Of a stretch of DNA of 64,000 nt, positions 1,479-28,611 are shown piece by piece (position 1 is the stretch's first letter; every line of letters begins with the position of its first letter). A program made the translations under genes and the position numbers. Location of the stretch: IMG/VR virus record IMGVR_UViG_3300034283_001913, positions 18,604-82,603 of that record; one strand, written 5' to 3'. The notes under the pieces are model-generated. The model was given only the letters and a program-made list of their open reading frames with translations, was not told where the DNA came from and searched no databases. Source of the stretch: a virus.

Positions 1479-1664
1479 ATGGCTAAAAATCAAGCAGGCG
1501 TTGGAGGGGTAAAGAACCCTAACACCGTATTCACAGAAGTAGTGAAGAATCCTACCCGTTATAAGGGCGGCATGAACACTTGTCCTGAAGTTGTTAAAAA
1601 CCCTACTCGTTATACAGGCGGTCTGAATCAGGCAGCTTGTGACGTTCCTAAAAAAGGTAAGTAA
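1479..1664 (+). CDS. Small basic protein with internal 17-aa repeat
   Basis: 61 aa; EVVKNPTRY(K/T)GG twice, plus a partial third copy (GVKNP). Confidence 0.75.
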   Translation: MAKNQAGVGGVKNPNTVFTEVVKNPTRYKGGMNTCPEVVKNPTRYTGGLNQAACDVPKKGK

Positions 1665-1843
1665 TGGCAAAGAAATCTAGTAAACCCGGACCTAATAAGG
1701 TAAACATGAAGACTGTAGGTAAAACTACAGCTTTAGTTACAAACTATGGTAAGAACTACAAAGGACCTCAGCCTAATAAGTCTAGAACAGGAAAACCTGC
1801 TCCAGCTTTCAAAAAAGGCGGAACGCTTAAGAAAAAGAAATAA
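1664..1843 (+). CDS. Small Lys-rich protein (59 aa, absent from ORF track)
   Basis: TAATG coupling to the previous gene; MAKKSSKPGPNKVNMKTVGKTTALVTNYGKNYKGPQPNKSRTGKPAPAFKKGGTLKKKK*. Confidence 0.75.
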   Translation: MAKKSSKPGPNKVNMKTVGKTTALVTNYGKNYKGPQPNKSRTGKPAPAFKKGGTLKKKK

Positions 1844-1845
1844 CT

Positions 1846-1974
1846 GTGGCAAAACAACAAACTAAGGTATCTTCATCAAAAACAGTTTTTGGTAAGAGAA
1901 GAGTAGGTAAAGCTAAAAAGCGTAAATCGCCTAAGGATAAACTTACTAAACCTTATATTGGACAAGGAAAGTAA
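1846..1974 (+). CDS. Small Lys/Arg-rich protein (42 aa, GTG start, absent from ORF track)
   Basis: MAKQQTKVSSSKTVFGKRRVGKAKKRKSPKDKLTKPYIGQGK*; fills the gap between its neighbours almost exactly. Confidence 0.7.
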   Translation: MAKQQTKVSSSKTVFGKRRVGKAKKRKSPKDKLTKPYIGQGK

Positions 1975-1978
1975 AACT

Positions 1979-2131
1979 ATGGCAGCCAAAGATAAAAAGT
2001 GGATACAAAAAGCAGTGAATCCTAAACATAAGGGTTACTGCACCCCTATGTCTAAGCCGACATGTACACCAAAAAGAAAGGCTCTTGCCAGAACTTTTAA
2101 AGCAATGGCTAAAGCTAGAAAAGGAAAATAA
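1979..2131 (+). CDS. Small Lys-rich protein (50 aa, absent from ORF track)
   Basis: MAAKDKKWIQKAVNPKHKGYCTPMSKPTCTPKRKALARTFKAMAKARKGK*; tightly packed between neighbours. Confidence 0.75.
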   Translation: MAAKDKKWIQKAVNPKHKGYCTPMSKPTCTPKRKALARTFKAMAKARKGK

Positions 2132-2133
2132 CC

Positions 2134-2322
2134 ATGGCTAAAACTAAAAGCAAAGTAAACCAAGCAGGAGTCTATACCAAACCAGGTATGAGAAAATCTT
2201 TGTTCAACAAGATTAAAGCTGGTTCTAAAGGCGGAGATCCCGGCGAATGGTCTGCTCGTAAAGCTCAGTTACTTGCTAAAGAGTACAAGTCAAAAGGTGG
2301 AGGATACAAAACCAAGAAGTAA
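2134..2322 (+). CDS. Small basic protein, resembles N-terminal half of DUF5872-type proteins
   Basis: YTKP...KGGDPGEWSARKAQLLAKEYKSKGGGY motif; family name recalled, not searched. Confidence 0.7.
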   Translation: MAKTKSKVNQAGVYTKPGMRKSLFNKIKAGSKGGDPGEWSARKAQLLAKEYKSKGGGYKTKK

Positions 2323-2588
2323 TGGCAAAGAATCCTCAGCAAAGTCTTAGAGACTGGACAGATCAAAAGTGGATGACTTCTGGCACTTATGCTAATAAGA
2401 AGAAGGGATCATCTAAAGAAGTAAAGTCAAAGGGTAAGAAAAGATATCTTCCCGAATCAGCTTGGTCTTCTTTATCTGCCGGAGAAAAGGCTGCGACTAA
2501 TAAAGCAAAAGCTGAGGGTAATAGAAAAGGTAAACAGTTTGTTTCCCAACCAAAAAATATAAAGCAAAAAACTAAAAAACACAGATAA
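2322..2588 (+). CDS. Small basic protein, resembles C-terminal half of DUF5872-type proteins
   Basis: QQSLRDWTDQKW...RYLPESAWSSLS...KGKQFV motif; TAATG-coupled to the previous ORF. Confidence 0.7.
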   Translation: MAKNPQQSLRDWTDQKWMTSGTYANKKKGSSKEVKSKGKKRYLPESAWSSLSAGEKAATNKAKAEGNRKGKQFVSQPKNIKQKTKKHR

Positions 2589-2746
2589 TGGCAAAGAACG
2601 CAAAACAACAAGCGGCAATAGCGATGTCTATGAAAGCTGTAGGTAAGAAGCCTAAGATGGCTAAAGGTGGTGCAGCAGGCACTGCTCTTAAGAATGCCTT
2701 GATTAAGGCAGGTTATAAAAAAGGCGGATCTACTAAGAAAAAGTAA
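2588..2746 (+). CDS. Small Lys/Ala-rich protein (52 aa, absent from ORF track)
   Basis: MAKNAKQQAAIAMSMKAVGKKPKMAKGGAAGTALKNALIKAGYKKGGSTKKK*; TAATG overlaps at both ends. Confidence 0.75.
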   Translation: MAKNAKQQAAIAMSMKAVGKKPKMAKGGAAGTALKNALIKAGYKKGGSTKKK

Positions 2747-3000
2747 TGGCAAAGTCACCAGCTTGGCAGCGCAAAGAAGGCAAGTCTCCTAGTGGAGGAC
2801 TCAATGCTAAAGGTAGAGCTTCTTATAACAGAGCTAACCCTGGTAAACCTGGGCTTAAAGCTCCACAACCTGAAGGTGGTTCTAGAAAGAAATCTTTCTG
2901 TGCCCGAATGTCAGGTATGAAGAAGAAGCTTACTAGCAGTAAGACAGCTAATGATCCCAATAGCCGGATCAATAAAGCGCTGCGTAAATGGAAATGTTAA
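2746..3000 (+). CDS. Small basic phage protein, DUF6321-like
   Basis: AWQRKEGKSPSGGLNAKGRASY...RKKSFCARMSG...DPNSRINKALRKWKC, typical of aquatic phage proteins; family name recalled, not searched. Confidence 0.7.
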   Translation: MAKSPAWQRKEGKSPSGGLNAKGRASYNRANPGKPGLKAPQPEGGSRKKSFCARMSGMKKKLTSSKTANDPNSRINKALRKWKC

Positions 3001-3019
3001 CCTTTAAATACTATAAACA

Positions 3020-3256
3020 ATGAAAAAAGTAACACCAAAAGCAAAAACCGGAAAGATGGTAAACCCTAATCCTACAGCTAAAGCGTCTCCTATGAAAAGC
3101 GGAGGAAAGGTTATGGCTAAAACAGGAAGAACTATTACTAAAGATCAGCCTCTGAATGCTCAAAATTCAGGTATGGCTAAGTACGGTAAGTCTATGACTA
3201 AAGCTATGTACGGCAAGTCTATGATGAAAAAGGGTGGTGCCAAAAAAGGCAAGTAA
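3020..3256 (+). CDS. Small Lys/Met-rich protein with repeated A-K-x-G / K-x-G-G motifs
   Basis: 78 aa; AKTG twice, MKSGG, AKYG, AMYG, MKKGG. Confidence 0.7.
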   Translation: MKKVTPKAKTGKMVNPNPTAKASPMKSGGKVMAKTGRTITKDQPLNAQNSGMAKYGKSMTKAMYGKSMMKKGGAKKGK

Positions 3257-3264
3257 TCTAAGAG

Positions 3265-3969: not shown

Positions 3970-3971
3970 CA

Positions 3972-4562: not shown

Positions 4563-4578
4563 AAAATATTTATATTAG

Positions 4579-4612
4579 TTTGCAAAATCTGATATAAAAT
4601 CTTATATTATAG
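4579..4612 (+). promoter_or_regulatory. Putative promoter TTTG-N20-TATATTATAG
   Basis: TTTG at 4579-4582 and TATATTATAG at 4603-4612; identical boxes and spacing recur at 9183-9216; geometry matches Bacteroidota -33/-7 promoters. Confidence 0.6.
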
Positions 4613-4648
4613 TGTTAATATTGTTTATCAACCTAAAATCAAACAAAA

Positions 4649-6253: not shown

Positions 6254-6292
6254 TATTTTCTTGTAATCTGGGAGAGTGAACTCTCTCCGTAT

Positions 6293-6326
6293 ATAGGGGG
6301 AGAGTTCATCTCCCCCTATTTTTATT
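6293..6326 (+). terminator. Intrinsic terminator with an upstream competing antiterminator
   Basis: ATAGGGGGAGA-GTTCA-TCTCCCCCTAT followed by a T-run; 6277-6288 can alternatively pair with 6297-6308. Confidence 0.75.
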
Positions 6327-6332
6327 ATAGCT

Positions 6333-6884: not shown

Positions 6885-6908
6885 TGTAACCAACAAAACC
6901 TATATACC

Positions 6909-9182: not shown

Positions 9183-9216
9183 TTTGTAAAAGAGCTAATA
9201 ATTCCCTATATTATAG
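9183..9216 (+). promoter_or_regulatory. Putative promoter TTTG-N20-TATATTATAG
   Basis: TTTG at 9183-9186 and TATATTATAG at 9207-9216; same boxes and spacing as 4579-4612. Confidence 0.6.
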
Positions 9217-12971: not shown

Positions 12972-13640
12972 ATGATTACAGTAGGCGACAGCATCTCACG
13001 AGTACGTAATGTGCTTAAAGCTGTTAAGGAAGATCCTTTCTTGACAGATAGATTTATAGCTAGTATTATTCTTAAATATGCTAAGCTATTGATTAAGCGT
13101 CAAGATGATGCTAATAAAATCATGCGCTTTCAAAGCTTGTTTGATGTTTTGCCTTGTGTAGATCTTATTGAAATAGATAGAGTAGAAGCTTGCTGTGGAC
13201 CAATCAGATCCAAGTGTATTATTAAGCGTACTAAAGAGCGCTTACCTCAAATACTAGAGGGAACATACGGACCTCTTTTCAGATCTGTTACATCGATTGA
13301 TGGATCTGTAGAGCTTTTCAAAACTTATCCGGCTACATATACCGCGATGAGTAACACTACTAATTTTAAGTATAACAAGACAAAATACTTCTGGTATCTT
13401 AACGGTTATCTATACTTTCCAAATATTGAGTGGGATGCTATTCGTATCGAAGCTTTATGGGACGGGGATGTAGAATATTTTAAGTGTGATGTTGACCCTT
13501 GTCTTCCTATTCAAGATCAATCATTCAGAATACCAGAATACTTGTTTGCTGAAATAGAGCAGATGGCTCTTAAGGAAATACTTACTACTGGTCAGATTCC
13601 ATCGGATGGTGCTGATAACCAGCAAAACATTCTTAGATAA
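12972..13640 (+). CDS. Tail ring protein (R2-like)
   Basis: 222 aa; LPCVDLIEID..CC, YFWYLNGYLYF, F.IPEYL pattern of crAss ring proteins; synteny. Confidence 0.55.
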   Translation: MITVGDSISRVRNVLKAVKEDPFLTDRFIASIILKYAKLLIKRQDDANKIMRFQSLFDVLPCVDLIEIDRVEACCGPIRSKCIIKRTKERLPQILEGTYGPLFRSVTSIDGSVELFKTYPATYTAMSNTTNFKYNKTKYFWYLNGYLYFPNIEWDAIRIEALWDGDVEYFKCDVDPCLPIQDQSFRIPEYLFAEIEQMALKEILTTGQIPSDGADNQQNILR

Positions 13641-17600: not shown

Positions 17601-19767
17601 CGTAGGCTATAAGCAAAGACTTCGTAATCAATATGGTCAAATAGAAGGTATAATTCAGGTTCCGGTATCAACTTGTTGGACAGATAAGAGTACTAAATCT
17701 ACTGCTGAAACAGTAACACTTTTTAATGGTGATATTTACTTAGCTAGATATACAGAAAAGAATACTTTCTTCTATTTCTACGATTGGTTGTATGATCAGC
17801 CGGATGGTTATGAGTTTAACTATCTAGAAAAGCGGATGCTTCCTTATCCTCGCTTTTGGCTCAATAGTCAAAAGTTTGAAGTACAGGATTCTATATCGGC
17901 GCTTACTGATTCAGTGACGTCGTTGTTTACACCTAGCGATCCAATTTGGGAACAGATTCCACCTAGTAGACAATTTTCTTTAGATGGATATTCTTGTCAT
18001 GGTATCCTTACTCTTCAAGGAAAAGGCTTTGCTGTAAAGTTTGCGTACTTTTATCTTTTCAACTCTGGAGTAAAAGATTTCTTTGTTGAGACAGAGATTA
18101 ACGTAGGCTTACGTGATTGGGGCGATATGGATTCTCAGAAACATTACCCTATCCTCGATGTCAAAGCTCTTTTTGATACTTCGATTATAAAAGCCGGTAA
18201 CTATTACAAATACGATATAAGTCTGGGCATTGGTAAAACGTATCTCAACTATGTTTCCTGGGGAGAAACACAACCTAGAATATATGATCCAAACCTAGCT
18301 GAAACTTGTTATCAGTATTATCCTACAAGAGTAATCTACTCTCTACCTGCACAACGTGAAGGCACAAGAGATAACTGGTACTTGTTTCTTGCCAACAACT
18401 ACTTTGATTTTAACAATAAAGTAAGTTGTATCAAACCGATTAATAAAAACGGTGCGGTAATCTTTTTCTATGCCGAAAGCCCTGTACAATTCTTAGGAGT
18501 AGACCAGCTTCAAACAGATGCTGGTACTAAGCTTACGATTGGTGATGGAGGATTGTTTAGTCAACCTATGCAGAGTCTTCTTAATGCTGACAAACCATAT
18601 CAGTATGGATCTTGTCAAGACAGACTTAGTGTAATCAATACTCCTCTAGGTATCTATTGGATTAACCAAGACCAAGGTAAAATCTTCACTATCAAAGGTG
18701 GTATAACAGAAATATCCGGCGAAGATTTGAGATGGTGGTTCCTTAACTATTTACCATACAAGCTTCTCGAGGCCTTCCCTAATTTTGAGTTAGTAGAAAA
18801 CCCAGTAATCGGTATAGGATGTCAATCTATCTACGACAACGAAAACCAGTTAGCGTATTTTACTAAGCGAGATTTTGTTGTAAAAAGAAGTCTTCCGGCT
18901 GGGACTACTATTACATATGTAAACAGGGATAACTTCCTTGTAAACAATATGCTTCCGATAAAGCTAGGCGATCCTGATTATTTTGAAGATGCATCCTGGA
19001 CCGTAAGTTTTGATCCTAAGCGAGGAGCTTGGATTAGCTGGCACGATTGGCATCCTAATCTTTTGATCCCAGGTAAAAATACTTTCCTGAGCGTTCTTAA
19101 TGATAATCCTAATCAGAATCAGGAGAATGGTATATGGATACATAATTACCGCTGTGACAGCTACTGTAACTATTACGGTATAGACTATCCTTTCGAGATA
19201 GAATATATGGTCAACACTGTGCAGAACGTAAACACATTGCGGTCGATTCAGTATCAGATGGAAGTATACAAATATGCTGATAACTGCTACGATCGATTCC
19301 ATGTGCTAGATTTTAACTTTGATGAAGCTGTTGTTTATAACACAGAACAGTGTTCAGGTCTTCTCAAGCTTAATCTTACACCTAAGAACAATGCTCCTTT
19401 GATCTTGAGCTATCCACAGGTTAACCCGACTAATATTGAGATCCTTTATTCTAAAGAAGAACAGAAGTATCGCTTCAATCAGTTTTGGGATATTACAGAT
19501 AGCAGAGGAGAGTTTCCGATTGGATCGGCTTATCCTCCTCCTACACCTAACGTAGGTTCGTATGCTGAGAGGATGATTTGGAACACAGAACCTAATGGTT
19601 ATGTTAGGATTCTTAATCCAAATAACTTAAATTATAGTAAAGATCCTCTGCAAAGAAAAAAGTTTAGACACTACGCAAATTTTGTATTTTTACGTAGAAA
19701 GGTGTCTGGCAATCGTAAGATCCTGGTACTCATTACAAACAACAAAAATCTTCTATCTCAGCGATGA
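14686..19767 (+). CDS. Muzzle / tail stabilisation protein
   Basis: 1693 aa; MNED...ARNA..N...IGNE N-terminus, YMRDEVYAFFI, IRHHRFPD, WTVSFDP...WISWHDW; typical of crAss tail stabilisation proteins. Confidence 0.75.
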   Translation: MAGLQNTSSQDPRRFDKEMNEDINDFHLSPDSWTQARNAINNSKTGDIGKIGNEPSNLFCTKAPYPIIGVIHTQADEWVVFSTDDVNSEIGTFKESSCTYTTLVNDPCLAFDRANLIKGVSRPTGECSFKVYWDDGKNPSRVLDLENIPWIQVCTDENGVVIPGPAGYDPVGCITCVDTTNLDCDKIRLARLVTQPCITVQKGTGGGTLPNGSYFAVIAYTIGGSNTEISSQKVTDYFPPSNLQSLFDHENVAGSLDIIIDSIDPDFDEYELVLVSIINQQTVARRVGIYSTQQKRVTLDIIDSRWVSVPIENIPIRTTVFERSDAMFSVNDYLIRTGPRARFDFNYQPLANQIVTKWVAVEYDQDYYKDGGSNTGYMRDEVYAFFIRWIYDTGDKSASYHIPGRPAFAGEKNFQVSDALPEEISGGFNYKWVIENTASQIGPPTAIPTADGGFQIAEGYMGYWESTEEYPDKKPEIWNANDPAHPWTAPNIVPYPGTNPNANGDYDLCGEKIRHHRFPDSILNFTNGTANHFVGSSPNFNGDPAIRIMGVKFENVRPPVDNQGNIISGVVGFEILRSTRQGNRTVLAKGVVSNMGVYTIEGNITPRTGLYPNYPYNDLNIDPFLSATETNAPVCKIDGSPTAAGDGYTPVGSFSNTIYSFHSPDTNFSKPFLSGKEFKIYEELRGTVTGKFEFSERHPKTKLISNTAFYTSVIVGIGIASVAMNGERTIRRNMPYQIMTPTDLITNAPGVAAANAGYGVMATALATANAAAWDAGGILGLNALGFGPGTYYATLATIGATAGIIPGLAGYSYQIDQKGGATEDIPVPLLIVQGIPTFISFWSQGVDSTLDLIRSIIKYRDFALKYNSHCLYDSFAIPPVSGDRRRSIIEQSYLGPNILDFGSNYRINNLFRSTTVALQVNSPLPFPVGDNTRQLATSPVANLMEPYGLFNNQMRLINPTAKAFTTNSVCYYVGYKQRLRNQYGQIEGIIQVPVSTCWTDKSTKSTAETVTLFNGDIYLARYTEKNTFFYFYDWLYDQPDGYEFNYLEKRMLPYPRFWLNSQKFEVQDSISALTDSVTSLFTPSDPIWEQIPPSRQFSLDGYSCHGILTLQGKGFAVKFAYFYLFNSGVKDFFVETEINVGLRDWGDMDSQKHYPILDVKALFDTSIIKAGNYYKYDISLGIGKTYLNYVSWGETQPRIYDPNLAETCYQYYPTRVIYSLPAQREGTRDNWYLFLANNYFDFNNKVSCIKPINKNGAVIFFYAESPVQFLGVDQLQTDAGTKLTIGDGGLFSQPMQSLLNADKPYQYGSCQDRLSVINTPLGIYWINQDQGKIFTIKGGITEISGEDLRWWFLNYLPYKLLEAFPNFELVENPVIGIGCQSIYDNENQLAYFTKRDFVVKRSLPAGTTITYVNRDNFLVNNMLPIKLGDPDYFEDASWTVSFDPKRGAWISWHDWHPNLLIPGKNTFLSVLNDNPNQNQENGIWIHNYRCDSYCNYYGIDYPFEIEYMVNTVQNVNTLRSIQYQMEVYKYADNCYDRFHVLDFNFDEAVVYNTEQCSGLLKLNLTPKNNAPLILSYPQVNPTNIEILYSKEEQKYRFNQFWDITDSRGEFPIGSAYPPPTPNVGSYAERMIWNTEPNGYVRILNPNNLNYSKDPLQRKKFRHYANFVFLRRKVSGNRKILVLITNNKNLLSQR

Positions 19768-22700
19768 AGAAAAAAGGAGCCATAACAAATACCGGGTATC
19801 TACCTAACTCGCCAGATAGGTTTAATGATTTCAACATTATACCTAGTCCTTACATTACAATGCAGGGAGTGCCTTATCCTATAATGGCTATACCTAATAA
19901 CCAGGGTCCTCCGACGGTTATGTATCCTGGACAGAATTACATGTTTCCAGGGAGCACTATGGTGAAGGAAATACCTATGCCTATTTTTGAAACAAAAGAA
20001 GATTTCTATAAAGATGCTCTTCGTAGAAAAAGAGATGCTTACTGGGATAATACTTCTTCTGGATCAGGCATACCGTTTCCTACAGCAAACATGCCTTCAA
20101 GATCTACAGGTGTACCATGGCCTACGGTAAAATCTGAATATACTGGGATAGCAATGCAAGTAGGGGGTCCTAGACCTACTATTGTTTACGATAGAAATGA
20201 TCCTAGATTAAAAGCTTATACAGACAGTCTAAGTACATATAACAACGCTCAGCTTTATAATATAGCGATACAAAATTTAGTAAATCAAAACCTTGCAAAT
20301 CGTGCTACACGTACTCATGATCGTTATTACCTGACAGGATGGGGATCAAATTATGGTTTTTCATCAGAAGACGAAGCAAAGAGAGCTTATCATCAATTTA
20401 AGGGGCAGCAAAATAGACTACAATCTCAATACGGATTAGTGTATAATAATGCTGTTAGTCATACAGTTCCTTTTAGGAGTACAGGAACGTTATATTTTCA
20501 TCATCCTCCAACATATGATCAGCGTCGAGGATTTACAAATGTTTTCGGGGTGTGGCCCCAAACTGCAATTTTTCCAAGACCTCAGCCTGTAATATATCAA
20601 GCGCCTCCTGTACCAGCTAAACCGGCATCTAAACCTAAATCAAGTAAGCCGGTGCCAGCCAAACCTAAACCTGCGCCTACTTCAACTCCTGTTTCAACAC
20701 CAGCACCAGTACCAGCACCAGTACCAGCACCAGTACCTGTACCGGTACCTGTACCGGTACCTGCACCAAAAGTGCCGGCTCCAGTACCAGTAGCTAAACC
20801 TGCTACTTATCAACCTCCTCAATACCAGGTTATGCAAGCAGGTAAACCTCTTTTTAATCCGGATGGTAGCCCGGTGATGCAATCAGGTCGTGCTCCTTTA
20901 CCAGCACACCTTCAAGCACCAAACACAACTCCAGAGCAGCGTGCTGCTTGGTGGACAAGTCATGGATATAATTCAACTGGTACAGGTGTTTATAATGCTC
21001 CACCGATTAAAAAAGGTGGTTGGATTAATCAGTATCAGAAAGGTGGAGTAACTATCAACTCAGAAGAAGAGTATCAAAAATCTCTTCTCATGAAGAATAA
21101 GACTAAGGAGAGAATAGATGCTGAGAGAGCTTGGGTTGCTAAAAAAGTAGCTGCCGCTAATCAAGCTAAAACTCAGCAACCGTTCTTTACCTCTTTTCCA
21201 AAGAGTAGTGGTACACCTTTACCTCAAAGTAGTCCAGCATATACTTATAACTGGAGTCCTGCAGATATTCAATCTAAACCAGGTTCTGTTGCAACACCGC
21301 AAGTAGTTATGACCAGTGCCTCTATGCCTCAATATGATTATATCAGAGAGGGAAAGGTCATTAAAGCTAAGGCAGAAGCAAAAGAAAAAAAGGATGCGGC
21401 TGACTTGCAGGTTCAAAAAAATCTTTATGGTAATACCTTAGGAACACTTAGATACTACGCTAATAAAACAGAGGAATGGGCAGAAGGAGAAGAAGGATCT
21501 AAGTATTATTACAAAGACCCAGATACTGGGCAGATGAGATCTTTTAGCGAAGTAGGAGCTTACGAACAAGTAGGTATACCTTTACAATCTGCAGCGTATG
21601 GTTCTTTTCCACTTTTTGAAGCAGCAGCACCTGTTGTTTCTTTAATGGGAAAAGGAGTTAGTAAAGCTATAGCTCCTATAATGAAGTCAGCATATGTAAC
21701 TAATCTAAAACAATCTTTACCTATAGTTGCTAAGGAAACTAATTACGCAGCGCTACGTTTTCTAAATCCTAAGCTTTATAAGCAACAGGTAGATGCTTTA
21801 AATAGAGGAAATACGTGGTCAAAGAATTGGATACAAGATGCGGCTACTATTGAAAAAATTAATAATGATCTTTTAGCGGGAGATATCGGTATAGAAGCCG
21901 CAGACCGCTTATATCGTTGGGAACATGCTCAGTCTAAATTTTATCCATTAAGAAATCAGTACGCTGATATGCTTATAGGAAGACCTCATATTTTTACTGA
22001 TCCTAAAGATCTTGGCGGCAGCGGTGTCATAGGTGGTGTGTATTACCCTCCAAGTTTTACAGCATATGATGATGCTTTATCAGCAATTTTTCCAAAAAGA
22101 TCAGGACAATCTTGGGTAAATAGAACCCTTTCTCCTGAAGAATTAGAATCTGTTGCGGTGCATGAAAACACACATGCTTGGACTGATGCTAATGATTATT
22201 TACCACAGCTCCATCAGGATGTTTATAGATCTATGATTCGGAATCCGATTTATGCTAGACCTAAAACAGATTTTGCAGAGTATATGGTAGATCCTACAGA
22301 AATACATGCTCGAGTAATGCAGTTACGTCATGCAGAAGGTATAAGACCTAAAGATCTTATTGATGATACTGCGGCCGAAATGTATATGGGATTAGCTTCT
22401 GAAGGTTATTATCGTAACATTTTTGGCGGAAAACAGTTTGGCCAGATGTGGGATAATCCTACTCAAAAAGTAACAGGTTTGTATTTTTCTGAACCTGTTG
22501 AAAGTCAGTATCCTTTAAGTGCTTTGTTTATGGGATCTTATGCTAAAGGCGGATCTACAAATCCAGATACAGCTAAGAGAATTTTACAATCCGGTTATTC
22601 CTACGGCAGAAGACTAAGCACTGCTCAGAGAAGATATTTTGCTGCAATAGCGGGTACTGATGAGTACGGTAATGATCCGAAAGAGCAAATGGAAGACGAA

Positions 22701-25700
22701 ACAGAAGTTATGATGGAGTATAAAAAAGGCGGTCTTAAGCGTGGACGCGATAGCAAGCGCACTTCTAAAAATATAAAGAGCAGTATCAATGAGATTCTTT
22801 ATAAAAGAAATGAAGATCTCTTTGGACCAAAGGGTAAGAAATATTTTAAGCCTTACCAAGATGGTGGTCAACCTGCAGCTCCTATGACTTACGACGAGTA
22901 CGCGGATGCTTATTTTCAAAAGCTTGCGGAACTAGAAGCTGAAAAAGCTCGCGTTGCTCAAGTGAGATCTAATATTATACCTACAGCTCAAAAAATAGAT
23001 GCAGCAGCCAACCCTCAAAAATTCTTAGTAGGAGCACCTGCTACTGGTAATTTTTGCAATGCTTATACAAATCAGTGTTACAATATTGCTGGTGCTACAA
23101 CAGTTGCTCCAATTGGGAACATACCTGCAGGATCTCGTATGCCAATGATTCCTGGTAACCTTGCTCAACAAGCTGTTTTATCTCAAGAAGGAATAGTTCC
23201 TATTCCTTTATCAGAAGCTCAACCAGGAGACATTATAAAGAAAGAGTACTATTCACCGGGTCTTCCTTGGCAAGGAAATTATAATCCGAAAGGAAATCCT
23301 TATTGGTCACCGGGACATAGTATGATCTATGCTGGTACTGATGCTCAAGGAAATCCTATGGTTTACAATAGTCCTGGTGGTAGAAATGTTTTTGAGTCTA
23401 GAACTTTCAAACCTTCTGAGTGGAAAGAAAATACTCGAGGTACTTTTACAGGTAGCCCTATGGGTACATCTAGAATGCAAGCTTATAAGTATGTAGGTAA
23501 TACTCCAACTCTTGAATCAGAAGCTCAACAGAATCGTCAACAGATGCTAGCAGCTACACCTTACATAGCACCAAAACCAGCATATTTGTCTTCTCCAGTT
23601 ACTGGTGTTATTACTCCTAACTACCAGCAAATGTATGATCAAAGAAAAGAGCAGTTTGATCAAGAAAGAAAAGCTATAGAAAATAAAAAATATTTATCAA
23701 AACGTAAGAAAAAAGCTGATTTAGAAGCTCTTGATCAACAAGAAAAAGATACTTTAGCAATGTACATACAACCTACGTCACCCGTAGTACAAAACAACAA
23801 TGATATGAGTACTCCACAAAAAAAGCAAGGAGGCATCGCATTCCCACAGCAGCCTACTGAAGAAAGATTCTTTGAAAGAGGATATGTTCCTAATTCTCCT
23901 GTGGGATTTTATGCTATGGGAGGGCCAACAGATATGATTGCTTTCCCTCAGCAACCGCCGGCAAATATGTTCTTTAGCGGCTATCCGTTCCAACCTCAAT
24001 ATATGGGTGGCGGAAGTACTTATACTCATTATAATATGGGAGGAATTTATCAAAACGGAGGAAGCCCTCAAAATTTAAGTACAGTATATTCTGACTATAA
24101 AACTGTTTATCAAGGGATGTCTCCTCAAGATATTCAGGAAGAATTGTCAAATGTTAATGCTCAAATAGCTGCCCCTAATGTTTATCCTCAAGAAGGATTA
24201 GACATTAAGCGACAAGTTCTTATGGATATACTTTATGCTCCTAAAAAGAATATGGGAGGAAAAGTTCTTCCTGGAGGAGCTCATGAAAATGTTCCTTGTA
24301 TGGAATGCGGAGGAAGCTACGATGTTGGCGGATCAATCTTCGGATACGGTTATCGCCCTGCCACTGAGTTTGGTGGTAATGTAGGTTTAGAGCAAGCTCA
24401 AAATGAGATGGTAGAGACTTACAAAAAGGGTGGTAAAAAAGCTAAAGCTGCTCTAATGAAATACATGCGCTCTATGCGTAAACAAGACGGTGGAGAAGCT
24501 CCTCAGAATGTAGGTCAGAGCGGTTATCTTATGGATAATCAAACAACTTTTAACAACTACCTAAAAGATAATATGCTTACTGCGGTAGATGAAAAAGTTG
24601 CTGATGAAATGTTTCAAGATGGCGGAAGCTTCGGATTCAATCCTTACAACTCTATGCAACAAAGAGCGGATATGAATCGATATAACTCAGGAGAACAAGC
24701 TAGAGCACAAGCTCGTGCTAACATGAGAGCTATGAATCAGCAGTTTATTCCGCAAGCTTATAACTCAATCTTTGCTCAAGCTGGAGCGGCTATGCCGGAC
24801 ACTTATACAGATGATCAAGGTAATGAGGTACCAATGACTCCAGAAAAATGGGCTCAGATACAGGCAGGAACACCGGGAAGTAATACTAATTATGATCCTT
24901 CAATGATTTGTACAAGTCAAGGTTGTTTTCCTCAAAGAACTGGTCAAACATCTTCTAATTATCTTACCAAAGAGGATGCTCAAAAAATGCTTGATGATTA
25001 TCTAAAGCAGTATTACCCTCAGGGAAATTATCCTGTATATAATCCGTATGGATATAATCCTTATGGGTATAATCCTGAGTATAGAACTGGTTATGGCATG
25101 TTCCCTTACAATCCTACTGGACCTTATTACAAAACTAAGTTCAAAGGATGGAGCAACATGCCTACTACGTATAACTGGCAACAAGGCACCGGTTATGTAG
25201 CAAACAATCCTACAGCCGGTATGACTCCTGAACAAATAGAAAAGTACTGGGGAGATAAAGGCTTTAAGGCTAATGTTGAAGTAGATAAAAAAAGCGGCCT
25301 ATTACATACAATTGCTCCTACAAGATTTGCACCTCGCCGAGTAAAGACTAATGTAAGTCTTGAAAGGATGCCTGGTCAAAGCGGATCATCTTCAGCGAGT
25401 GGATCAAGTTCTACAACTGGATCATCTTCGACAACAGGATCAAATTATACAGACCCTAATGCTAATCCTGCAGGAGATATGCCAAGAGATGCTCAAGGAA
25501 ATATCATAATGGCTAATCCTTATGCTCAAAGATTTGAACAAGTTGTGACACCTGAACAAGAACAGCAGATGGATGCTCTTTTATACCGTCGTAAAATGGG
25601 AGGAGCATATGCATACGGTGGATATTATCAAGATGGTGGTGAAGAAACGGCTCATGAAGGAATAGGTAACTCTATGGGTTATAGCACTGATGAGCGTCGT

Positions 25701-26078
25701 CGTTTTGGAATCTTTACAAATCCTTCTACACCACCGTGGATGATTGCCGGATTAGATTTAGGAGCAAGAATCGGAGAGATGGACGAACAACAAGCTATGT
25801 TGGATCGTATCCGCTCTCGTCAAGGAGCGGATGCTAACTATTACGCTCAGGGTATGAAAAAAGGAGATTATACATTTGATATTTATGCCGGACAAAGTTT
25901 CCGCCCAGATCAAATGGGAGCAAAGGTTCAACCTGGATCTATGGGTAATATAGGAGCTATGAATATTGGTAATCCTTATCAAAGTAAACTAGGTGGTGAA
26001 AACGACTATGTTTACATGGATGACAATGAGATTGCGGAGTTTATGGCAAAAGGTGGTACAATTGAATACTTAGACTAA
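19764..26078 (+). CDS. Modular virion cargo protein with zincin-like and NlpC/P60-like domains
   Basis: 2104 aa; HENTH...EIHAR (22161-22175); FCNAY...QPGDII...GHSMIY (23055-23330); ~20 x-x-x-G-G tags; low-complexity linkers. Confidence 0.6.
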   Translation: MKKKGAITNTGYLPNSPDRFNDFNIIPSPYITMQGVPYPIMAIPNNQGPPTVMYPGQNYMFPGSTMVKEIPMPIFETKEDFYKDALRRKRDAYWDNTSSGSGIPFPTANMPSRSTGVPWPTVKSEYTGIAMQVGGPRPTIVYDRNDPRLKAYTDSLSTYNNAQLYNIAIQNLVNQNLANRATRTHDRYYLTGWGSNYGFSSEDEAKRAYHQFKGQQNRLQSQYGLVYNNAVSHTVPFRSTGTLYFHHPPTYDQRRGFTNVFGVWPQTAIFPRPQPVIYQAPPVPAKPASKPKSSKPVPAKPKPAPTSTPVSTPAPVPAPVPAPVPVPVPVPVPAPKVPAPVPVAKPATYQPPQYQVMQAGKPLFNPDGSPVMQSGRAPLPAHLQAPNTTPEQRAAWWTSHGYNSTGTGVYNAPPIKKGGWINQYQKGGVTINSEEEYQKSLLMKNKTKERIDAERAWVAKKVAAANQAKTQQPFFTSFPKSSGTPLPQSSPAYTYNWSPADIQSKPGSVATPQVVMTSASMPQYDYIREGKVIKAKAEAKEKKDAADLQVQKNLYGNTLGTLRYYANKTEEWAEGEEGSKYYYKDPDTGQMRSFSEVGAYEQVGIPLQSAAYGSFPLFEAAAPVVSLMGKGVSKAIAPIMKSAYVTNLKQSLPIVAKETNYAALRFLNPKLYKQQVDALNRGNTWSKNWIQDAATIEKINNDLLAGDIGIEAADRLYRWEHAQSKFYPLRNQYADMLIGRPHIFTDPKDLGGSGVIGGVYYPPSFTAYDDALSAIFPKRSGQSWVNRTLSPEELESVAVHENTHAWTDANDYLPQLHQDVYRSMIRNPIYARPKTDFAEYMVDPTEIHARVMQLRHAEGIRPKDLIDDTAAEMYMGLASEGYYRNIFGGKQFGQMWDNPTQKVTGLYFSEPVESQYPLSALFMGSYAKGGSTNPDTAKRILQSGYSYGRRLSTAQRRYFAAIAGTDEYGNDPKEQMEDETEVMMEYKKGGLKRGRDSKRTSKNIKSSINEILYKRNEDLFGPKGKKYFKPYQDGGQPAAPMTYDEYADAYFQKLAELEAEKARVAQVRSNIIPTAQKIDAAANPQKFLVGAPATGNFCNAYTNQCYNIAGATTVAPIGNIPAGSRMPMIPGNLAQQAVLSQEGIVPIPLSEAQPGDIIKKEYYSPGLPWQGNYNPKGNPYWSPGHSMIYAGTDAQGNPMVYNSPGGRNVFESRTFKPSEWKENTRGTFTGSPMGTSRMQAYKYVGNTPTLESEAQQNRQQMLAATPYIAPKPAYLSSPVTGVITPNYQQMYDQRKEQFDQERKAIENKKYLSKRKKKADLEALDQQEKDTLAMYIQPTSPVVQNNNDMSTPQKKQGGIAFPQQPTEERFFERGYVPNSPVGFYAMGGPTDMIAFPQQPPANMFFSGYPFQPQYMGGGSTYTHYNMGGIYQNGGSPQNLSTVYSDYKTVYQGMSPQDIQEELSNVNAQIAAPNVYPQEGLDIKRQVLMDILYAPKKNMGGKVLPGGAHENVPCMECGGSYDVGGSIFGYGYRPATEFGGNVGLEQAQNEMVETYKKGGKKAKAALMKYMRSMRKQDGGEAPQNVGQSGYLMDNQTTFNNYLKDNMLTAVDEKVADEMFQDGGSFGFNPYNSMQQRADMNRYNSGEQARAQARANMRAMNQQFIPQAYNSIFAQAGAAMPDTYTDDQGNEVPMTPEKWAQIQAGTPGSNTNYDPSMICTSQGCFPQRTGQTSSNYLTKEDAQKMLDDYLKQYYPQGNYPVYNPYGYNPYGYNPEYRTGYGMFPYNPTGPYYKTKFKGWSNMPTTYNWQQGTGYVANNPTAGMTPEQIEKYWGDKGFKANVEVDKKSGLLHTIAPTRFAPRRVKTNVSLERMPGQSGSSSASGSSSTTGSSSTTGSNYTDPNANPAGDMPRDAQGNIIMANPYAQRFEQVVTPEQEQQMDALLYRRKMGGAYAYGGYYQDGGEETAHEGIGNSMGYSTDERRRFGIFTNPSTPPWMIAGLDLGARIGEMDEQQAMLDRIRSRQGADANYYAQGMKKGDYTFDIYAGQSFRPDQMGAKVQPGSMGNIGAMNIGNPYQSKLGGENDYVYMDDNEIAEFMAKGGTIEYLD
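20700..20765 (+). repeat. 12-nt in-frame tandem repeat encoding a (PAPV)/(PVPV) linker
   Basis: CCAGCACCAGTA three times, then CCTGTACCGGTA twice. Confidence 0.85.
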
Positions 26079-26079
26079 C

Positions 26080-28611
26080 ATGAAAAGAAAAGTCAGAATA
26101 GTGTCCATGCCTAAGGCACAGTCTGGGCTGGCTGTAAAGATGAATGCCGGTAGAGCAGCGATTGGTTTAAATGCTAATCAGCTTAGCTGGCCTGTTATGG
26201 CCGGCGAGTTTTCTGCTCCAGATCTTAAGGTAGCAAGTACAATACAAGAAGCAAAGGGTCCTTTTAATATTGAAGCTGAAAAAGGTGAAACTATTTTTCA
26301 GCCTGCAGGTTTTGGAGGAATCCCAGCGCACTTTAAAATCGGTGGTAAAAAACACTACGATGGTGGAACAAAGCTAAATGCTCCACCAGATTCCTTTATC
26401 TTCTCTGACCACAGTTCTATGAAGATAAAAGATGGTGATGTCCAAAAGATGTTTGGTAAAACCGAAAAGAAAAGTGGATATACCCCGGCCGATATTGCTA
26501 AGCAATACGATATAAACAAGTATGTCAAGATTCTTAGAGATCCTGATTCAGATCGTCTTCAGCGCGAAACTGCAGAGATGATGATCACCAACTACAATTT
26601 AAAGTTGGGTAAGCTCGCTTTAGCGCAAGAGTCTATCAAAGGATTTCCTCAGGGGATCCCGGCTATTGCTATGCCGTATATGATGACTATGAATATTGAT
26701 CCTAATGATTTTACACAGACGCAGGGTCAACCGGAACAACCAGCTCCAGACAATATGTCTAAAGGAGGAAGTTATGTTCCTAAAGCTCAGCGAGGATTAT
26801 TCAATCGTCGTAAAACAACAATGCGTTATAATCCTCAATCCGGAGCTTACGAAGTTCTAGATGAAAACGGTAACGTTATTGGTTTTGGTAATCCTGGACC
26901 TCAATATCCTGCTCCGCCGGTATACGGTGGATATCCTCCTGTTATGGGCGGAGGTATGGGTATTCCTGCTCCAGGTAAATCAGGTACTGAAGTATCTAGA
27001 GTAGTTAAGCGCCAGGATATACCTAAAGACGGTATTATCATCAAACGTGCTGATTATAAAACAGAAAAAGAATACATAGAGGCTCGTGACAATGCTTACC
27101 AAACTAGAGGAAACAAAAAAGTTTATACTCAAGGTTCGGATGGTAAATACTATAAGGTTGGTGAAAAAGCTCCTACGGGAACTACACCTGATGAAAACCT
27201 TAGCATGTTAGGAAAAGCTTTTGGTAATGACAAAGTACAGAAAGCTCTTTACGATAAGACTTTAGCTGCGGCTAAAAACTCAGAAAACCTAGGAAAAAAT
27301 CCAGGCTTCACTGTACAAGAGTTAGAAGCTATGACTCCTGCTCAACTTACAACACAATTTCTTGAGATGCAGAACAGAAATGTTAAACTGTCTGCTCACT
27401 TAAAAAGTGAGGGTATAGGGTTTAACTGCTTTGATAATAAAGGAGATTTTAAGTCCGGTCCTGACTGTAAAAACGATAAGTATAAAACTTTAAATGAAGC
27501 TTTTGTAGGAGCAGGTGTTCAACCTCCAGCCGATAGAAAAGCAATAGGGATTCAACAAATATCCTACATCGGATATCGTGACCTTCTATCTGATAAAAAG
27601 CTAGACCCAACTTTAGCAGAAACTCTTAAGCCTTTTGCTATTGAAGCAAAAGGCTATGACGATGAAACAGGACCAGATGCAAACAAAAGAATTTCTAAAG
27701 CTGACGGTGTTTATACCAATACTACAGCTGGTGAGGTGGCAGGTATAAGAAGCGCTCCGAGTATCATCGAAGAGCTTGCAGAAGAAACTGAAGAAAAAGT
27801 AACTGATCCTGCGGCTCCTGAATACACAGCTGGAAATCTTTCCGCTCCTTGGTGGTTACAAGATATCATAAATATTTCAGGTAAGTTTGGAGATTGGGCA
27901 AGACTTAGAAAACGTTATCCAAATCTTCCTGTACCTGAAGTAGTACTTCCAGAAGGAGTGTTCGCTGATCCTAATCGCGCTCTAGCAGCTAATGCTGAAC
28001 AAGCTAATATTATGGCTCAGAATCTTGCTGCTTTCCAAGGACCTCAAGCTTTATCTAGTCGTTCTTCTCAGATTCAAGGACAGGCTGCTCGTCAAGCTGC
28101 AGACATCATGGGTCGTTACGATACCATGAACGTCGGTATAGCAAATCAGCTAGAGTCTCAAAGATCACAAATCCTTAATGCGGCTAATACAAATCGAGCT
28201 AATATAAAAGCTCAAGAAGATATGTATAACGCTATTGTAGATCAGAACTTCCAGAACGCTGAGACAGCAGCTAGAAATAATCTTCGCCAGTCTTATATCA
28301 ATGCTATGAATAATCGCTGGACAGCCTTTAACGTTAATCAGCTTACAGATCAATATCAGATGCATCCGGAAATTGGTGGAGGAATCTTCTTTGATCATGG
28401 AAGACCTGTTCAGCCGGATAGCTCATCTTCTACATCACTTAGCGATGCTTTCATGACAAATCGTGAAAATATGCCAGGTGTAGATGACAGCGTTATCTGG
28501 CAGATTACAAAGAACCAGATGGGAGTAGCTGATGAGAACGCGGTTGATCCTAACTACCAGGCTATGCTTCAGGCTCAAGCTAACATGTACAATACATCAC
28601 AAGGACAATAA
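26080..28611 (+). CDS. Virion cargo protein (crAss cargo-like)
   Basis: 843 aa; N-terminal EAEKGET...GKKHYDGG...FIFSD domain typical of crAss cargo proteins; Gln/Ala/Asn-rich helical C-terminus. Confidence 0.6.
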   Translation: MKRKVRIVSMPKAQSGLAVKMNAGRAAIGLNANQLSWPVMAGEFSAPDLKVASTIQEAKGPFNIEAEKGETIFQPAGFGGIPAHFKIGGKKHYDGGTKLNAPPDSFIFSDHSSMKIKDGDVQKMFGKTEKKSGYTPADIAKQYDINKYVKILRDPDSDRLQRETAEMMITNYNLKLGKLALAQESIKGFPQGIPAIAMPYMMTMNIDPNDFTQTQGQPEQPAPDNMSKGGSYVPKAQRGLFNRRKTTMRYNPQSGAYEVLDENGNVIGFGNPGPQYPAPPVYGGYPPVMGGGMGIPAPGKSGTEVSRVVKRQDIPKDGIIIKRADYKTEKEYIEARDNAYQTRGNKKVYTQGSDGKYYKVGEKAPTGTTPDENLSMLGKAFGNDKVQKALYDKTLAAAKNSENLGKNPGFTVQELEAMTPAQLTTQFLEMQNRNVKLSAHLKSEGIGFNCFDNKGDFKSGPDCKNDKYKTLNEAFVGAGVQPPADRKAIGIQQISYIGYRDLLSDKKLDPTLAETLKPFAIEAKGYDDETGPDANKRISKADGVYTNTTAGEVAGIRSAPSIIEELAEETEEKVTDPAAPEYTAGNLSAPWWLQDIINISGKFGDWARLRKRYPNLPVPEVVLPEGVFADPNRALAANAEQANIMAQNLAAFQGPQALSSRSSQIQGQAARQAADIMGRYDTMNVGIANQLESQRSQILNAANTNRANIKAQEDMYNAIVDQNFQNAETAARNNLRQSYINAMNNRWTAFNVNQLTDQYQMHPEIGGGIFFDHGRPVQPDSSSSTSLSDAFMTNRENMPGVDDSVIWQITKNQMGVADENAVDPNYQAMLQAQANMYNTSQGQ

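Follow-up and report, generated by a model that had tools for sequence, protein, structure and literature searches.

The 64,000-nucleotide stretch analysed here (hereafter the window) comes from an uncultured marine crAss-like phage that is known here as an IMG/VR contig alone (82.6 kb, 69% complete). The crass-like group counts among the most abundant of all known phages, and the portal of this marine clade has at least 6223 relatives at E ≤1e-20 among 8000 candidates scored. The genes relevant to this work were located as follows:

1479..3256, + strand: nine consecutive tiny basic ORFs of 42-88 aa (1479-1664, 1664-1843, 1846-1974, 1958-2131, 2134-2322, 2322-2588, 2588-2746, 2746-3000 and 3020-3256)
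12972-13640, + strand: ring protein 2 (Pfam CrAss_Ring_2)
13640-14686, + strand: ring protein 1 (Pfam CrAss_Ring_1)
14686-19767, + strand: muzzle protein (Pfam crAss_MUZ)
19764..26078, + strand: predicted modular cargo protein of 2104 aa, with 16 [YFM]xxGG tags and IKKGG
26080..28611, + strand: 843-aa protein, the next gene of the cargo block, not enriched in tags, with an N-terminal 240 aa conserved in relatives

The ring 2, ring 1 and muzzle genes at 12972..19767 fix the position of the cargo block. The 2104-aa ORF lies directly 3' of the crAss_MUZ gene, the spot occupied in crAss001 by cargo protein C1 (gp45), and the order ring 2, ring 1, muzzle, cargo is common to the phage contig and crAss001. 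Its N-terminal module (aa 22-72) matches the first cargo ORFs of relatives, and its C-terminus (..EFMAKGGTIEYLD and stop) matches the ends of their second cargo ORFs; judging from sequence, the protein can be read as a fusion of the first (C1-type) and second (C2-type) cargo proteins. The following features were assigned within it:

20154..20168, + strand: tag MQVGG (aa 131), immediately 5' of a conserved DPRLKAYxDSL module
21006..21047, + strand: composite tag IKKGGWINQYQKGG (aa 415-428), a copy of GGW[LI]xxYQxGG
21756..22493, + strand: zincin-like domain with HENTH (aa 665-910)
22539..22868, + strand: tags YAKGG (22539-22553), YKKGG (22719-22733) and YQDGG (22854-22868)
23016..23543, + strand: NlpC/P60- or CHAP-like domain (aa 1085-1260), a weak assignment
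23910..24626, + strand: cluster of nine tags (aa 1383-1621), with YAMGG, YMGGG, YNMGG, YQNGG, MECGG, YDVGG, YKKGG and FQDGG
25608..25640, + strand: tags YAYGG and YQDGG (aa 1949-1959), directly before the C-terminal module
26043..26078, + strand: last tag, MAKGG, within the conserved C-terminal signature ..NEIAEFMAKGGTIEYLD and stop

The chain combines several domains of apparently unrelated activity: a zincin-like HExxH domain, an NlpC/P60-like lead and eight or more small modules that relatives carry independently of one another. An alignment of 27 sequences shows no variation at H161, E162, H165 and the downstream Glu, E207, of the zincin-like domain, and 73 of 78 homologues retain HExxH. 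Its AF2 model (pLDDT 73.4) gave no match to solved structures at E ≤0.001 in Foldseek, and the top weak rows were zinc metalloproteases (E 2.8-8). The NlpC/P60-like domain has Atlas matches at 0.92-0.93, Cys and His motifs noticed by eye, and weak structural rows (7cfl_A, Z 4.9 over 83 aligned residues; 8auc_B, Z 4.9; 8tw1_A, Z 4.6) tied with coiled-coil rows. The protein had no Pfam match at E ≤0.01, including to NlpC/P60 and to Pfam's polyvalent-protein models; an LPD23 lead was obtained in Atlas at 0.87. The three tags at 22539..22868 flank a pair of small modules that separate the two enzyme-like domains, and homologue matches begin and stop at these tags. The module PCMECGGSYDVGG of the nine-tag cluster is similar, by eye, to PCYECGGNVYQEGG of second cargo ORFs. 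The C-terminal signature also ends six other proteins (L022, 563 aa; L035, 838 aa; G016, 620 aa; P0022; P0065; P0141), and a weaker form occurs in Leptolyngbya phage Lbo-JY46. The 2104-aa protein closes with this second conserved signature, ..GGTIEYLD, and not with the WLxKY form described below.

The original prediction described a recurring hydrophobic-x-x-G-G tag, with about 20 copies in the 2104-aa protein. Each listed pentapeptide is present; 16 [YFM]xxGG together with IKKGG and VLPGG give 18 tags with any hydrophobic first residue. The 16 [YFM]xxGG tags compare with 2.23 expected, and this number was reached in 0 of 1000 whole-protein shuffles and in 0 of 2000 shuffles inside blocks of 30-200 aa (2.6-3.2 expected), so that Gly/Lys content does not explain the enrichment. 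Y..GG alone occurs 12 times against 1.09 expected. Tyr stands at position -3 of 11 of 28 GG runs, compared to 5 of 72 in 27 other proteins of the window, and the commonest residues at -2 are Gln, Lys and Ala. The proposed placement of the tags between domains is supported. All three within the folded stretch aa 905-1270 are coil with pLDDT <50 in the AF2 model, and none occurs in 100 zincin-like envelopes of homologues (7.0 expected). In this single model the residues preceding the three tags are likewise coil and not helix ends, and the module aa 931-974 (pLDDT >90) begins right after YAKGG.

Elsewhere the tag is scarce, also in line with the original prediction (muzzle, 2 vs 1.16 expected; four giant downstream proteins, 0-2 vs 0.44-1.31). 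The 843-aa protein, which had been named as a second carrier, is not enriched: MSKGG, KAQSG and KAQRG are present, but [YFM]xxGG occurs twice against 0.68 expected, a number reached in 293 of 2000 shuffles, and KAQxG occurs only twice. By position, the giant downstream proteins correspond to the packaged RNA-polymerase proteins of crAss001. Since proteins in this position lack the tag, packaging as such would not require it, and the suggestion of a general packaging signal is not supported.

Among the nine tiny basic ORFs, the tags are placed as follows:

1808..1822, + strand: FKKGG, followed by TLKKKK and the stop
2657..2728, + strand: MAKGG (2657-2671) and YKKGG (2714-2728), in a 52-aa ORF
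3092..3238, + strand: MKSGG (3092-3106) and MKKGG (3224-3238), in a 78-aa ORF

The claim that the tag is shared by these proteins is correct in part: the five listed tags are there (5 vs 0.59 expected, summed), but they fall in three of the nine ORFs and the other six have none. Three tiny ORFs end in a tag and a Lys-rich tail. Family matches of the tiny ORFs were to DUF6321, phrog_17747 and phrog_14910, and their modules match cargo ORFs and small ORFs of the complete relative G028. The 52-aa ORF at 2588-2746 shares 62% identity with aa 399-430 of a second cargo ORF; the tag is aligned in this match, its MAKGG (2657-2671) facing KSAKGG of the cargo ORF. By this alignment, the tiny proteins are related to the cargo by more than the tag, and they would presumably be packaged as well.

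The same distribution was found in relatives. In four crass-like genomes, the tag is enriched solely in the one to three genes after the muzzle gene (G000, 16 vs 2.27 expected; G016, 7 vs 0.88, 4 vs 0.92 and 3 vs 0.72; G028, 6 vs 0.82 and 5 vs 0.94; G002, 6 vs 1.51 and 2 vs 0.36). A set of 151 homologues was gathered via aa 560-1260 of the 2104-aa protein, and was hence not chosen by tag; these proteins carry 495 tags, where 100.9 would be expected. The excess persists beyond the matched domain in 77 zincin-only homologues (163 vs 39.2) and in 14 NlpC/P60-only homologues (54 vs 9.9), and the counts inside the matched domains are lower than expected (zincin-like, 0 vs 7.0 in the 100 envelopes; NlpC/P60-like, 2 vs 3.6). 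Judged by these counts the tag is a family trait, and the proposed restriction to the cargo block and some tiny basic proteins is upheld, with enrichment confined to post-muzzle genes and the three tiny ORFs. Lbo-JY46, the nearest cultured relative by portal, is barely enriched. Module order is shuffled among relatives, and modules are found free, fused or rearranged.

The most elaborate form of the tag is the 11-residue composite unit GGWLxxYQxGG. It was found in 36 stretches of viral contigs compared to 0 for the reversed control, and in cellular genomes (596 Gb) there were four chance-like matches. CrAss_Ring_2 is present in 31 of the 34 records with the unit, including all seven that are at least 90% complete, and the unit also occurs in P0002. 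It is, on this evidence, virus- and crass-specific. The 32 carrier ORFs include two with SLT, two with PG_binding_1 and two with ART-PolyVal, and DUF5872 is also carried. Gene boundaries of relatives fall inside the unit, with ..GGWLxKY and a stop followed by the next cargo gene: among 27 complete ORFs with an internal unit, 26 end in W[LI] plus at most five residues and 20 in W[LI]xx[YF]x{0,1} (the WLxKY form), as against 0 of 206 other ORFs ending in the W[LI] form. A WLxKY-type ending is present in 55 of the 151 homologues. The codons of the tag vary, which places selection at the peptide level. Because the composite core is kept at a free C-terminus, it cannot be there to be cut. In the 2104-aa protein the unit is internal only and the ending is different, so this argument rests on the relatives.

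A structural reference is provided by crAss001 gp45 (PDB 7qog, chain M and others; Bayfield et al. 2023, PMC10172136). Residues 425-552 of gp45 were modelled as one compact domain on the portal wing (PMC10172136), and this portal-bound ordered domain opens with AFGGWLNTQGG (aa 425-435). SAYGG (206-210) immediately precedes the tail-barrel-bound helix 214-245, and FAYGG (559-563) follows closely on residue 552. The chain is modelled unbroken through the GG pairs 427-428, 434-435 and 447-448, and that copy is therefore uncut. The protein is not enriched in [YFM]xxGG (3 vs 1.24 expected); the variant A[FY]GG, which was defined after looking, occurs four times against 0.10. Neither phmmer nor blastp detected a match between gp45 and the proteins of the window. 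The link is indirect and runs through P0001, a homologue of the 2104-aa protein that matches aa 1053-1258 of the latter and residues 403-587 of gp45 (E 1.4e-6, in a small database), and that has ANGGYMQYANGG at the corresponding place before its gp45-like domain. The two proteins are alike in position after the muzzle gene, and both are Gly-rich, modular and partly disordered. The portal-bound domain of gp45 begins with a single GGWLxxQGG unit, aromatic-GG motifs lie next to ordered segments of the protein, and its C-terminus has a tag and a Lys-rich tail as in the tiny proteins of the window. They differ in size, gp45 having 842 aa and no enzyme-like domain noted, where the 2104-aa protein has two. 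PMC10172136 mentions neither the motif nor any cleavage, with cleav, proteoly and protease absent from its text.

Our preferred, though tentative, reading is that the tag is an uncleaved docking or anchoring motif at module junctions. The tag, an aromatic residue or Met followed by two variable residues and Gly-Gly, punctuates a family of beads-on-a-string cargo (ejection) proteins of marine crAss-like phages. The 2104-aa protein strings together small modules and two enzyme-like domains, with tags in its flexible junctions and at its end. Most copies would be uncut, each forming a hydrophobic knob between glycine hinges that ties the cargo chain to the particle interior until ejection. The fullest handle would be GGW[LI]xxYQxGG, whose core may also act as the free C-terminal peptide ..GGWLxKY. 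We infer that the tag itself makes the contact; candidate partners are the portal wing, the tail barrel or neighbouring cargo. The original prediction offered either a linear motif for docking or a Gly-Gly protease site. The linear motif is real and the docking half fits best, given the core kept at a free C-terminus (26/27), but the protease half fares less well. Against docking, 16 tags per chain exceed the need of a simple one-site contact, AFGGWLNTQGG makes up only the first 11 of 128 ordered residues in gp45, [YFM]xxGG is not enriched in gp45 and barely so in Lbo-JY46, the proteins in the RNA-polymerase position lack the tag, and the tag-rich 2104-aa protein itself contains a conserved HExxH domain.

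This last point leads to cleavage, which we consider an unlikely alternative. The cargo would be a polyprotein, and cuts at or beside the tag, made inside the particle or once ejected, would divide it into free enzymes and small basic modules. The tiny ORFs would encode the same products separately. The cutting could be done by the zincin-like domain of the protein, by a host enzyme or by a phage protease that escaped recognition. The tags indeed lie in disordered linkers and coincide with module edges and with the gene boundaries of relatives inside the composite unit, as cleavage would also predict; identical modules occur free, fused and reordered; and a Y/F/M first-residue set is expected for a chymotrypsin-like or thermolysin-like site. 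The well-conserved zincin-like domain is a candidate enzyme, and processing by zincin-like peptidases was proposed for polyvalent proteins by Iyer et al. 2017 (PMC5512222). However, this domain was absent in six-frame searches from G002, G016 and G028, all with tag-rich cargo genes, and only 7 of the 27 first cargo ORFs have it. Apart from a Peptidase_S74 chaperone belonging to a fibre, 59 ORFs of the 82.6-kb contig (69% complete) yielded no protease family, and neither did 99 of 103 ORFs (≥70 aa) of the complete G028, a search that unrecognised families would escape. The unbroken gp45 chain also argues against it, as do motifs at free C-termini and a few residues from the stop in tiny ORFs, where cutting does little. 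Adenain and ubiquitin-like sites have an xGG register, and the adenain consensus is (M/I/L)XGG, with the hydrophobic residue two places before the first Gly. The tags resemble adenain and ASFV pS273R sites in having a hydrophobic residue upstream of Gly-Gly on small very basic and larger internal proteins, but here that residue is three places before the first Gly (Tyr in the 11 of 28 GG runs). With this shift of one place, no protease family found, cysteine proteases included, and gp45 unbroken through three GG pairs, the predicted analogy to adenovirus/ASFV maturation is not supported.

The remaining explanations invoke no cut. The tag may be passive punctuation, a Gly-Gly hinge that lets the module chain unfold and thread the narrow tail, with the hydrophobic residue closing the preceding module and no partner at all. 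The degeneracy of the motif, its many copies per chain, its absence from folded domains, its frequency between them and its presence wherever modules shuffle are in keeping with this, and the crAss001 authors argued that passage through the tail requires partial unfolding of the cargo (PMC10172136). A hinge nevertheless leaves unexplained the conservation of the composite unit across 34 records, the near-universal WLxKY end and the strong choice of Tyr at -3, and the three modelled tags are preceded by coil and not by helix ends (one model); we regard it as rather improbable. Less probable still is action after ejection, in which, by analogy with disordered colicin translocation domains, repeated aromatic-glycine epitopes might attach to peptidoglycan, the membrane interface or a periplasmic protein in the envelope of the host and keep wall-degrading and channel-forming cargo there. 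Tag-rich proteins do carry or neighbour wall-acting domains (SLT, PG_binding_1, Peptidase_M15_3 in P0001 and the NlpC/P60-like lead), and the expectation for the first cargo protein is that it exits ahead of the others and helps to form the channel (PMC10172136). The ordered crAss001 copy, though, is bound inside the capsid, and tags are also found on very basic tiny proteins lacking an envelope-related domain. Finally, the composition of the 2104-aa protein (Gly 8.8%, Tyr 6.8%, low-complexity stretches) might be thought to produce the pattern as a by-product; this is refuted by the global and local shuffles and contradicted by the five-fold excess in 151 homologues and the empty reversed-DNA control, and can be set aside.

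The docking reading can be extended. The tags might constitute a portable address code for crassvirus cargo, in which modules flanked by the tag, above all by GGWLxKY, are captured by repeated sites inside the particle and are loaded, held and released in order; we regard this as possible but doubtful. SH3-like loops in the wings of the twelve portal subunits would be the obvious candidate sites. Such a code would explain how delivery survives when modules are shuffled, fused or split off as tiny genes, and also the retained end peptide of the first cargo protein and the high variability of these genes between close relatives. The loading of several megadaltons of protein and its ordered injection are the question left by the crAss001 structure, and a peptide that is short, conserved and simple to mutate, and that singles out precisely the first cargo proteins, offers a direct handle on it. 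If instead the tags are cleavage sites, they would indicate a polyprotein strategy for injected phage effectors, which is predicted for polyvalent proteins but not shown. The motif was not met in print: a full-text search for tag strings gave unrelated papers, and searches on cargo of crassviruses, on cleavage and on virions of marine crass-like phages gave only the crAss001 atlas, a review and a paper on host interaction.

Short terminal peptides that mark proteins inside an HK97-fold shell include the encapsulin cargo-loading peptides and the T4 internal-protein capsid-targeting sequence, the latter being N-terminal and cut off. The ..GGWLxKY end of 26 of 27 first cargo proteins is likewise a short conserved terminal peptide, and would be a putative loading signal, but its sequence is different, and the tag is mostly internal and repeated. 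The 2104-aa protein also resembles the polyvalent proteins (Iyer et al. 2017, PMC5512222), which combine many unrelated small and enzymatic domains per chain and are delivered with DNA. That paper treats domains and no junction motif, and the words linker and glycine are absent from it. The zincin-like domain and a shuffled domain order are shared with polyvalent proteins, and relatives of the 2104-aa protein carry ART-PolyVal, SLT and DUF5872.

The window spans positions 18604-82603 of a virus record from IMG/VR (82.6 kb, 69% complete), and its structural genes follow a crass-like order, with the gene for a 2104-aa protein directly behind that for the muzzle. In Bacteroides phage crAss001 the post-muzzle position is occupied by cargo protein C1, gp45 (Bayfield et al. 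2023, PMC10172136). The features concerned are as follows.

Gene immediately upstream of the window: major capsid protein (Pfam family Crass_capsid)
1479-3256, + strand: nine back-to-back tiny basic ORFs of 42-88 aa, directly after the capsid block
12972-13640, + strand: CrAss_Ring_2 (Pfam)
13640-14686, + strand: CrAss_Ring_1 (Pfam)
14686-19767, + strand: crassvirus muzzle protein, crAss_MUZ (Pfam)
19764-26078, + strand: ORF of 2104 aa, directly after the muzzle gene

The closest cultured portal is that of Leptolyngbya phage Lbo-JY46 (33.6% identity; the query portal lies upstream of the window, L062:13096-15864), followed by those of Cellulophaga phages phi17:2 and phi4:1 (25%). The tiny ORF 2746-3000 encodes a DUF6321 protein whose identity to hypothetical proteins of Synechococcus phage ACG-2014f is 78.6% across the whole length and 82% for residues 6-84. 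Given the portal relationship and this similarity, the phage is marine, and the host of this crass-like clade need not belong to the Bacteroidota. The ORF has matches in 539 records of cultured phages (cyanophages, pelagiphages and a Methylophilales phage); it is a small module that unrelated marine phages exchange. In the complete crass-like relative G028 a Band_7/SPFH protein (E = 4.9e-27; L059:12543-13073, minus strand) adjoins the portal gene.

The original prediction described a recurring hydrophobic-x-x-Gly-Gly tag in the 2104-aa protein, and every pentapeptide that it listed was found in the sequence. Counted as [YFM]xxGG, the tag occurs 16 times vs 2.23 expected, a number reached by none of 1000 whole-protein shuffles. 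Shuffling within blocks of 30, 50, 100 or 200 residues raised the expectation only to 2.6-3.2 and again never gave 16 (0 of 2000), which rules out local composition as the cause. Position -3 is Tyr in 11 of the 28 GG runs of this protein, vs 5 of 72 in 27 other window proteins. Since the codons of the tag vary from copy to copy, its origin as a repeat or recombination signal in the DNA was rejected. The muzzle and the four giant downstream proteins carry the tag at the expected level, in agreement with the predicted scarcity elsewhere. With the giant proteins at the RNA-polymerase position devoid of the tag, its reading as a universal packaging signal was rejected. The predicted enrichment in the tiny basic ORFs holds in sum (five tags vs 0.59 expected) but is confined to three of the nine, and that in the 843-aa protein was not borne out (2 vs 0.68 expected, equalled in 293 of 2000 shuffles). 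KAQxG was discarded as a second tag, with two copies only in the window. The 2104-aa protein also contains three low-complexity stretches (aa 290-345, 1750-1765 and 1873-1893): a Pro-Ala-Val repeat (PAPVPAPVPVPVP), a YNPYGYNPYGYNP repeat and a Ser/Thr/Gly run.

ORF calling covered the entire contig plus three records of uncultured relatives (G002, G016 and G028; each 100% complete by CheckV, two with terminal repeats). In all four genomes, only the first one to three genes behind the muzzle are enriched in the tag: 7 vs 0.88, 4 vs 0.92 and 3 vs 0.72 expected in G016, 6 vs 0.82 and 5 vs 0.94 in G028, and 6 vs 1.51 and 2 vs 0.36 in G002. The tag is thus a trait of a protein class rather than of the 2104-aa gene alone. 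With aa 560-1260 as query, exhaustive phmmer searching (E up to 0.001) gave 176 cluster representatives, and the best 150 of these plus P0001, a homologue via the NlpC/P60-like domain, hold 495 tags vs 100.9 expected, with p below 0.01 in 56 of the 151. Circularity was avoided by counting only residues outside the matched domain: proteins matching solely the zincin-like domain (n = 77) have 163 tags there vs 39.2 expected, and those matching solely the NlpC/P60-like domain (n = 14) have 54 vs 9.9. Inside the domain envelopes there are 0 vs 7.0 expected (zincin-like, n = 100) and 2 vs 3.6 (NlpC/P60-like, n = 27). A word-indexed homologue search returned only 2 matches. No match was obtained with the full-length 2104-aa protein as query for related loci in viral contigs, nor by tblastn against cultured phages with this protein and a relative's N-terminus, and the clusters of ten homologues bore no informative names.

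In an AlphaFold2 model that covers aa 905-1270 (mean pLDDT 63.5, from a 30-row alignment), YAKGG, YKKGG and YQDGG are coil with pLDDT under 50, and a small module at aa 931-974 with pLDDT above 90 begins right behind YAKGG. Helix-capping was rejected for these three copies, as the preceding residues are coil. We conclude that the tag is a peptide-level motif at disordered junctions of modular cargo proteins.

A longer unit, K-x-GGWL[DN]xYQxGG, first became apparent in the remote homologue P0002, and its counterpart in the window is IKKGGWINQYQKGG at aa 415-428. The back-translated DNA pattern of GGW[LI]xxYQxGG occurs in 36 stretches of 34 viral records, all in frame inside ORFs of 153-2264 aa; the reversed pattern had 0 matches in viral contigs, and cellular genomes (596 Gb) gave four, all chance-like. 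CrAss_Ring_2 is present in 31 of the 34 records, among them all 7 with a completeness of 90% or more, and in 0 of 14 control genomes; the ORF with the unit lies ~9 kb downstream of ring 2, as the gene after the muzzle. These carrier ORFs were chosen by the internal unit, not by their C-terminal sequence. In 26 of 27 complete carriers the C-terminus is W[LI] followed by at most five residues, and in 20 of them W[LI]xx[YF] followed by at most one (for example ..GGWLDKY or ..GWLNKYK). Such an end is found in 0 of 206 other ORFs of the same loci; of the 151 homologues recovered through the domains, 55 have it too. Five codons are used for Leu and two for Tyr at carrier ends, and therefore selection acts on the peptide. 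This free-end form is seen in relatives; the 2104-aa protein ends otherwise. For 18 carriers the locus includes a following ORF on the same strand within 400 nt; in 17 of them this ORF begins 1-70 nt past the stop (at L019 the called start overlaps the stop) and opens with a conserved module ..IL..AG...EFY..FPT (by eye; a regular expression caught 10). Across loci L004-L037 the conserved pair at the gene boundary reads ..GGWLxKY stop, 1-70 nt, M..IL..AG...EFY..FPT..F. From this pairing we hypothesize that a cargo protein may bind with its end to the beginning of its successor, which would couple their ejection.

In gp45, residues 425-435 read AFGGWLNTQGG. The structural report models residues 425-552 as a single compact domain that lies on the portal wing and interdigitates with the SH3-like wing loops (PMC10172136). 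From these residue ranges and the sequence we infer that this copy is ordered and uncut in mature particles, as are GG pairs 434-435 and 447-448. SAYGG (206-210) directly precedes the tail-barrel-bound helix 214-245; FAYGG (559-563) lies shortly past residue 552. Unlike the 2104-aa protein, gp45 is not enriched in [YFM]xxGG (3 vs 1.24 expected); A[FY]GG, a pattern defined after looking, occurs 4 times vs 0.10. In P0001, ANGGYMQYANGG stands at the corresponding place ahead of a gp45-like domain (blastp E = 1.4e-6, small database; jackhmmer 8.5e-22), and no such domain was found in the window. Complex prediction for the phage's portal (aa 1-790) with cargo aa 395-470 scored 0.00 in both runs (15-row alignment, no controls) and is uninformative in either direction.

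The 2104-aa protein contains two enzyme-like domains. In the zincin-like domain (aa 665-910), H, E, H and a downstream E are invariant in 27 sequences, and HExxH is kept in 73 of 78 homologues. Its model (pLDDT 73.4, pTM 0.75) has zinc metalloproteases as weak top structural rows, none significant. Weak leads point to an NlpC/P60-like domain at aa 1085-1260; neither model had a Foldseek match in the PDB at E up to 0.001, and VIA-align on the aa 905-1270 model gave Z under 5 throughout. That the tags are protease sites would fit both this conserved metallopeptidase-like domain, which is often present, and the coincidence of tags with module and gene boundaries. The zincin-like profile matches 7 of the 27 first cargo ORFs (the genes directly after the muzzle); it has no match in six frames of G002, G016 and G028, and no Pfam protease family was found in 59 contig ORFs or 99 of 103 G028 ORFs, a fibre chaperone excepted.

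As no cutter is apparent in these tag-rich genomes, the tag core is kept at free ends, and one gp45 copy is, by its residue range, ordered on the portal in the solved virion, we tentatively favour a putative uncut docking or anchoring handle, a role that we rate as possible and somewhat short of probable, and consider cleavage unlikely. A passive hinge would suit the degeneracy of the tag but leaves the conserved 11-residue unit unaccounted for, and seems improbable. Envelope binding after ejection, which suits the wall-acting domains of tag-rich proteins, is less likely still.

The 2104-aa protein itself appears to be a fusion of the first and second cargo proteins encoded after the muzzle. 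Its N-terminal module (aa 22-72) is that of first cargo ORFs and lies deep inside the chain in other relatives; its C-terminus, ..NEIAEFMAKGGTIEYLD, is the ending conserved among second cargo ORFs (for example L035, 838 aa, ..QGYGIEYLD; L022, 563 aa, ..RGGYTVEYLD; G016, 620 aa, ..AAGGEIEFM; also P0022, P0065 and P0141). Lbo-JY46 has a weaker version, ..LGYDFEVV. Module order differs between relatives.

The tiny ORFs have modules in common with cargo ORFs. ORF 2588-2746 aligns at 62% identity (E = 1.3e-6, small database) with residues 399-430 of a second cargo ORF, pairing KMAKGG with KSAKGG, and for ORF 2134-2322 there are matches in four second cargo ORFs, in their N-terminal part (E = 8e-4 to 5e-3, small database). 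The DUF6321 ORF recurs in G028 behind two further tags. Eight of the nine start with M-A-K (1958-2131 at an internal Met only), and K+R, counted from the sequences, is above 0.20 in six and 0.15-0.31 over all nine; their products are candidate DNA-associated internal proteins. In G028, too, small basic ORFs end in a tag and a Lys-rich tail, ..SMRKGGKISKKK, and so does gp45, ..EYTGGTKKAKGGKVRTKKKKGLTYG. A likeness by eye of tiny ORF 1958-2131 to gp45 aa 383-423 was recovered by neither phmmer nor blastp, and no relationship is claimed.

A ferritin-like protein without the tag is encoded at 3972-4562 (+ strand; Pfam Ferritin, E = 1.2e-22; phrog_16594), inside the structural block, with a virion structural protein on one side and tail-fibre-like genes on the other. 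Ferritin-like proteins are classic cargo of encapsulins, and a packaged iron-handling protein is a candidate worth attention. In the tail-fibre region, a 694-aa protein with BNR/Asp-box repeats (7098-9182, + strand) may be a sialidase-like protein that serves in receptor binding or as a depolymerase.
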